Source: Escherichia coli (GTDB lineage Bacteria; Pseudomonadota; Gammaproteobacteria; Enterobacterales; Enterobacteriaceae). Taken from it: a DNA stretch of 64,000 bases. The notes below the pieces were generated by a model that searched no databases, was not told where the DNA came from, and saw nothing but the letters and a program-made list of their open reading frames with translations. Of this stretch, positions 58,605 through 58,775 are shown in pieces; within the stretch, counting starts at the first letter, position 1; the number at the start of each line of letters is the position of its first letter. The stretch is from assembly GCF_048403405.1 (NCBI RefSeq), contig NZ_CP183129.1; one strand, 5' to 3'. Both the position numbers and the translations under genes were made by a program.

Positions 58605-58775
58605 TGTTTTTATTTATTCAATGAATTTATATTTCGTTGAATAGATAACATTTTCATGAATATTAGATGCTGGTTTTGTGACTGATGTCGAATATTTGAA
58701 TGTCGGCTTGAAAAATAAGCCGACCATCTCTTTAATTAAACACAATTCCGTGTAATGTATACACATTAGTTAATC

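Follow-up and report, generated by a model that had tools for sequence, protein, structure and literature searches.

The bglGFB operon of Escherichia coli K-12 combines a CRP-dependent, H-NS-silenced promoter with a leader made up of a ribonucleic antiterminator (RAT) and a terminator, its antiterminator being encoded by the first gene, and IS insertion can activate or inactivate this cryptic operon. In the malI-malXY system of the same organism, the MalX EIICB and the MalY lyase are under the control of a LacI-type repressor and CRP. Here, we examined a 64,000-nucleotide stretch of E. coli DNA (the window), in which a first-pass annotation had drawn attention to an inverted repeat, TAATGT-ATAC-ACATTA, upstream of a phosphotransferase system (PTS) operon. 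Through this analysis, we found that the operon has a bgl-type leader, and that the repeat most likely came about by coincidence in a minority allele, where it covers the probable -10 box and transcription start, with no function as a unit. The view that it is a conserved repressor or CRP site is not supported.

The operon and its leader

The window is E. coli chromosome and carries recD, argA (minus strand), and amiC, followed by a low-GC insert, the GC content passing from ca. 52% in the flanks to 32 to 46% in the insert. Homology to K-12 ends right after the amiC stop codon (ca. 58605), so the entire 257-nt intergenic region is island DNA. The island is carried by 1,687 of 5,426 complete E. 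coli genomes, and in fully matching genomes its genes are followed first by metZWV (tRNA genes) and next by mltA; one of the ca. 1,690 leader copies lies on a plasmid rather than on a chromosome. Five genes make up the insert, encoding an antiterminator, a MalX-like EIICB (which matches MalX-type models), a MalY/PatB C-S lyase, a KpsF-like SIS protein, and a phosphoglycerate dehydrogenase-like (PGDH) protein. No gene for a DNA-binding repressor is found among them, and the island, which is present in several genera, is without a regulator of the DNA-binding type. The two genes that follow the leader are the following:

58862-59686, plus strand: BglG/LicT-family antiterminator gene with CAT_RBD plus PRD domains (825 nt, the listed length of c3409)
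59718-61298, plus strand: MalX-like PTS EIICB gene (1,581 nt, the listed length of c3408), with the MalY/PatB, SIS, and PGDH genes next

The gene lengths of 825, 1,581, 597, and 948 nt equal those of c3409, c3408, c3406, and c3405 in strain CFT073 (PMC9765446 supplement), and the operon corresponds to c3409-c3405 in PAI-metV. c3405-c3410 has been described as a maltose/glucose-type PTS set in PAI-CFT073-metV, found in UPEC strains, E2348/69, and SMS-3-5 (PMC2831201).

The start of the MalY/PatB gene lies over the stop of the EIICB gene (61298) and the SIS gene overlaps the MalY/PatB end by 8 nt (62475-62482), which suggests translational coupling. The EIICB is without an EIIA domain and presumably borrows the EIIA of the host. 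In UM146 the antiterminator gene is annotated as frameshifted (L008, 463-801), and several clusters of truncated antiterminator proteins (among P0010-P0016) have more than 100 members each; taken together, these suggest decay of the regulator in many E. coli lineages.

For comparison, a set of orthologous leaders was assembled, with members from further E. coli lineages, E. whittamii, two Citrobacter, Atlantibacter hermannii, and metagenomic contigs; their antiterminators share 78 to 96% identity with the window protein, and 12 sequences were aligned. The RAT that had been placed downstream of the repeat proved to be real, and forms part of a bgl-type RAT/terminator leader, the first paired base of the RAT lying 10 nt past the repeat:

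58778-58801, plus strand: RAT hairpin, CUUG-UAA-CUG-UUAAAU-CAG-G-CAAG
58795-58850, plus strand: intrinsic terminator, with an outer stem (58795-804/58833-842), an inner stem (58811-818/58820-827), and a T9 run

The lower stem of the RAT is CUUG/CAAG and the upper stem is CUG/CAG, and both halves are invariant in 12/12 orthologs. The element (TTGTAACTG-N6-CAGGCAA) matches the characterized RAT1 of K-12 bgl (TTGTTACTG-N6-CAGGCAA) in its halves and in their spacing, and its 3′ half doubles as the 5′ arm of the terminator hairpin (58795-58842). Both hallmarks of a BglG/SacY-type leader are present, namely, a RAT hairpin that overlaps the terminator 5′ arm and adjacent genes for a CAT_RBD-plus-PRD antiterminator and a PTS EII. 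For the terminator, folding gave -36.8 kcal/mol (z = -5.8). An Rfam scan of 58400-59100 (E ≤ 10) returned noise only, the RAT being matched by none of the families. Compensatory switches from G-C to A-T between Escherichia and Citrobacter/Atlantibacter were seen at 58802/58835 (6/12 sequences) and 58811/58827 (2/12).

In this regard, the locus closely resembles bglGFB, where the RAT is nearly identical in halves and spacing and likewise overlaps the 5′ arm of an intrinsic terminator. The two operons also share a BglG-family antiterminator gene in first place with a PTS EII gene next, and an AT-rich locus, H-NS occupancy of the present operon having been reported in CFT073 (PMC9765446). They differ, however, in several respects. 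The gap between the antiterminator and EIICB genes is 31 nt, so the present operon has a single RAT/terminator; its RAT would start at ca. +14, versus ca. +40 in bgl; its EII is a MalX/glucose-family EIICB without EIIA, with a MalY/PatB lyase in place of the phospho-β-glucosidase; and its CRP-like site (see below) is weaker and further upstream. A MalX-like EIICB and a MalY/PatB-like lyase, in the same order, are shared with K-12 malI-malXY. Unlike that system, the present one has PRD antiterminator and RAT control, and lacks both a LacI-family repressor gene and a conserved dyad operator. The RAT architecture is shared with SacY/LicT/GlcT of Bacillus subtilis, and LicT and GlcT are the models that give the present antiterminator its highest scores; what differs is that the present system resides in an enterobacterial accessory island. 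The NCBIfam LicT, GlcT, and BglG models were all matched below their equivalog cutoffs, alongside Pfam PF03123 and PF00874, and the nearest relatives outside the Enterobacteriaceae are clostridial LicT proteins (30 to 37% identity).

A probable promoter over the repeat

The features upstream of the RAT are as follows:

58677-58692, no strand assigned: CRP-like site TGTGA-ctgatg-TCGAA (TGTGActgatgTCGAA), 8/10 core bases, centered at ca. -80.5 from the predicted start
58702-58724, plus strand: terminator-like hairpin GTCGGCTT-N7-AAGCCGAC, with the CRP-like site on its 5′ side and the -35 region on its 3′ side
58725-58737, plus strand: second conserved block, CATCTCnnTnATT, ca. -40 to -28, including the -35 region
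58753-58768, no strand assigned: inverted repeat TAATGT-ATAC-ACATTA, perfect solely in the window allele
58753-58758, plus strand: candidate sigma-70 -10 hexamer, coinciding with the repeat's left arm; TAATGT in the window, with TAAGGT, TAGGGT, or TACAGT as the ortholog versions
58764-58766, plus strand: C-A-T, invariant in both alignments (A1 and A2), located 7 nt past the -10 and within the right arm

The repeat has perfect 6-bp arms, TAATGT (58753-58758) and ACATTA (58763-58768), on either side of ATAC (58759-62), for a total of 16 bases. The first-pass annotation was right about the repeat itself, although by starting it at 58751, 2 nt early, it included the preceding TG.

Across the orthologs, sequence is conserved in two blocks, 58725-58737 and 58750-58770, and is variable between them and in the flanks. 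The latter block (GTGTAnnGTATAnnCATnAGT, 21 nt) follows the pattern GTGTAnnGT.T...CATnAGT, with 15/21 positions invariant over the 12 orthologs. The three most important positions of a -10 element are T-12, A-11, and T-7 (TAnnnT), and 58753-58758 is the sole aligned hexamer within 58690-58870 that has TAnnnT in 12/12 orthologous leaders; for this reason, we regard TAATGT, the left arm, as the probable -10 hexamer. By the usual spacing between the -10 and the start, the invariant C-A-T 7 nt downstream of this hexamer leads us to predict that transcription starts at A58765. The right arm would then span the probable start, with C58764 at -1, A58765 at +1, and T58766 at +2. Since its left arm is the candidate -10 and its right arm holds the predicted start, the repeat appears to overlap the likely core promoter, as had been expected for the PTS operon on first inspection.

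An arrangement in two blocks is what would be expected of the -35 and -10/+1 regions, and we count it in favor of a promoter. At a spacing of 16 to 18 bp, the best match to TTGACA is poor (CTTTAA, 2/6), and TAATGT/TAAGGT is a weak -10. A promoter consensus scan of 58500-59000 gave zero promoters, its sole output being the hairpin at 58702-24. The poor -35 and the empty scan are consistent with an activator-dependent promoter, without proving it; the weak -35 in particular would suggest activator dependence of the kind seen in bgl, with the upstream CRP-like site as a candidate. No experimental start site in island-bearing strains was found in the literature, nor was a start-site data set covering the island. 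From the promoter proposed here, RNA polymerase would start near 58765, and the RAT would begin at ca. +14. As long as no active antiterminator is present, transcription would stop at the 58795-58850 terminator; in the presence of inducer, the PRD protein would bind the RAT and allow read-through.

Other candidate elements were considered and set aside. In a rough weight-matrix promoter scan, TTGAAA-17-TTTAAT (58708-36) received a higher score, in E. coli only; it has T at the essential A of the -10 (position 2) and is unconserved outside Escherichia. The hexamer CACAAT/GATAAT (58741-46) was rejected as a -10 because A, G, and C all occur at its position 2. A minus-strand open reading frame (58614-58766) that starts at the invariant CAT is interrupted after 7 to 9 codons in orthologs outside Escherichia. 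Two structures further upstream could terminate read-through from amiC: the 58702-58724 hairpin, which has a GC stem and a weak T tail, and an imperfect AT-rich inverted repeat with 25-nt arms (58601-58657) that extends from the amiC stop codon and island junction.

Were transcription to start further upstream, the repeat might instead form a 5′ RNA hairpin that stabilizes the leader or modulates folding of the RAT. The RNA can pair, in the major allele by way of G-U pairs, and TTGAAA-17-TTTAAT provides E. coli with a promoter-like sequence upstream. However, the latter is unconserved and without the -11 A, while the hairpin is weak and ortholog dependent (-4.1 to 0 kcal/mol; z-scores of -1.9 to +0.9) and shows no covariation, and the minimum-energy fold of the window pairs GUGUA with UACAC rather than the arms of the repeat. 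We therefore consider an RNA hairpin highly improbable.

Origin of the repeat

Although the window allele has full dyad symmetry (6/6 pairs), such symmetry does not exceed the chance level in this region. The intergenic region (257 nt) is 31% GC, and its dinucleotide-preserving shuffles contained a mean of 1.4 perfect repeats with 6-bp arms (gaps of 0 to 10), with at least one in 68% of the shuffles; the whole window has ca. 1.1 such repeats per 257 nt. Within the window there is no second copy of the motif, the next-best matches carrying 2 mismatches. Two short palindromes overlap the repeat in other registers, TGTATACA at 58756-63 and GTGTA-N5-TACAC at 58750-64.

Counting of 38-nt alleles over the 1,687 island-bearing E. 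coli genomes gave the following distribution:

Window allele, with the perfect repeat: 122 genomes (7.2%)
TAATGT-ATAC-GCATTA, the main allele: 1,085 genomes (64%)
Remaining alleles, with TAAGGT and/or ATAT-G variants: 480 genomes (28%)

Orthologous leaders (E. whittamii, Citrobacter, Atlantibacter, and metagenomes) keep 2 to 4 of the 6 Watson-Crick pairs. In the 12-sequence alignment, pair counting revealed no compensatory (two-sided) change; one pair is lost in 6/12 sequences and another in 10/12. The terminator stems, counted over these 12 sequences, reach 100% and 92.7% pairing and include two compensatory pairs. Because so few pairs of the repeat are kept, with zero compensation, while the adjoining terminator compensates and the RAT is invariant, the pattern is, as judged from these sequences, unlike that of a dyad maintained by selection. 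The ancestral forms were likely TAAGGT...GCATTA and TAGGGT...CCATCA, and the perfect dyad appears to have arisen within a single lineage of E. coli by two substitutions, one (G to T) at 58756 and the other (G to A) at 58763. Presumably, both positions are unconstrained, and the palindrome would have formed there by change at free positions. A metagenome scan for a leader variant from outside E. coli returned just two loci, of a haplotype already known. Being at chance level, and a minority-allele coincidence over the probable promoter of an accessory operon, the repeat is thus ordinary.

These findings bear directly on the suggestion that the repeat is an operator, by which a dimeric repressor bound to the 16-bp dyad would block RNA polymerase at the promoter. 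Its location over the inferred -10 and start is the classic position for an operator, and both of the derived E. coli substitutions make it more symmetrical, the number of pairs rising from 4 through 5 to 6. However, we estimate a chance of ca. 1 in 9 that both changes would raise symmetry when two freely varying positions have changed. Moreover, a repeat that occurs at chance level, is perfect in just 7% of carriers, and keeps 2 to 4 of 6 pairs with zero compensation in other genera is difficult to reconcile with an operator, as are the lack of a repressor gene in the island and of a second motif copy in the window. We therefore regard an operator as very unlikely. A by-eye comparison with known operators (TyrR, LexA, Fur, the GalR/LacI family, the GGTATA repeats of NanR, CpxR, and PhoP) gave no convincing match, and is a lead rather than a test.

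The repeat had alternatively been proposed to be a CRP-like site with atypical spacing. GTG (58750-52) and CAC (58762-64) do resemble the core bases of a CRP site. Nevertheless, the gap between them is 9 rather than 8, which departs from the TGTGA-N6-TCACA geometry, and the right-hand CAC reads CGC, CCC, ACC, or GGC in most orthologs. Furthermore, a site over the -10/+1 region would repress rather than activate, and a candidate with canonical spacing exists upstream at 58677-92. This proposal can be dismissed with near certainty.

The conservation of 58750-58770 as a block is a separate matter, since its 15 invariant positions exceed the strict need of a -10 plus a start, and an overlapping protein site could lie within it. 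One possibility is that a host regulator binds this candidate site over the promoter, recognizing the GTATAC core or a GTGTA-N5-TAnnC dyad and not TAATGT/ACATTA. The 15/21 positions are invariant in the 12 orthologs while both flanks vary, a dyad of the GTGTA/TACAC type keeps 3 to 5 of its 5 pairs, and Citrobacter FP75 carries a 10-bp palindrome, GGGTATACCC. On the other hand, the GTATAC core is missing from one ortholog (L011), which retains TAnnGT and CAT, the flanking positions are without consistent covariation, the multigenus island carries no regulator of its own, and the constraints of a -10, a discriminator, and a start can account for much of the conservation. On balance, such a site seems unlikely. 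It is also rather unlikely that the block is a putative host-regulator site on an operon spread horizontally through several enterobacterial genera, of which the window palindrome would be a strengthened variant.

CRP-like site and H-NS/StpA

The CRP-like site at 58677-58692 is, when taken alone, at chance level, with 27 two-mismatch matches in the window versus 29.6 expected. The orthologs retain its TGTGA half at a constant distance, and distant operons with the same gene order (L017-L019; antiterminators of 42 to 44% identity) carry TGTGAcggcacTCAAA, a 9/10 match, upstream of an otherwise unalignable promoter. As measured from the predicted -10 elements, the centers lie at ca. -80.5 in the window and ca. 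-60.5 in L017, 20 bp apart and near class I positions, with -80.5 deviating from the canonical class I phase by ca. 2 bp. These observations do no more than suggest a role for CRP at this candidate site. The form TGTGA-N6-TCnAA is found at 58677-58692 in the window, 2829-2844 in L017, and 781-796 in L011, and in the distant operons its distance is offset by ca. 1 to 2 helical turns.

Published ChIP-seq data show H-NS/StpA silencing in CFT073, where c3405-c3409, corresponding to 58862-63071 and beyond in the window, are all bound by H-NS and StpA (PMC9765446, data set S1); occupancy is highest over c3409, which adjoins the promoter (H-NS, 0.74; StpA, 0.71; on a scale of 0 to 1) (PMC9765446). 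Given that H-NS and StpA occupy the operon in that strain, regulation beyond antitermination exists, without a tie to the repeat. The earlier idea of control in addition to antitermination is therefore reasonable, considering this occupancy and the upstream CRP-like site, but not by way of the repeat. Taken together, the locus is probably an ordinary promoter, activator dependent and silenced by H-NS, that feeds into a RAT/terminator leader of the bgl type, which heads an accessory PTS operon.

The repeat itself is of little weight, and its removal disposes of a false operator candidate. Of greater use, the probable promoter, RAT, and terminator of an uncharacterized UPEC/ExPEC-associated PTS operon (c3405-c3409, PAI-metV) are now placed at base resolution. 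c3405-10 was reportedly linked to bladder fitness by Lloyd and colleagues in 2009. The regulators most worth attention are the PRD antiterminator, H-NS/StpA, and possibly CRP, which would be useful for switching the operon on in order to find its substrate.

Two further observations concern variants of this leader. The distant operons L017, L018, and L019, from metagenomic contigs, encode a PRD antiterminator, an EIICB, an aminotransferase-fold lyase, and an SIS protein, and have a nearly identical RAT (TTGTAACTATTAAATTAGGCAAG) behind an unrelated promoter sequence. In E. coli ES7 (L010; 1 of 1,688 genomes), the IS5-like element ISEc68 is inserted at TTAG in the right arm of the repeat (window ca. 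58766), which places it downstream of the inferred -10 and ahead of the RAT. Such an IS5-family insertion within the promoter region of an island-bearing strain recalls the activation of bgl by IS elements.
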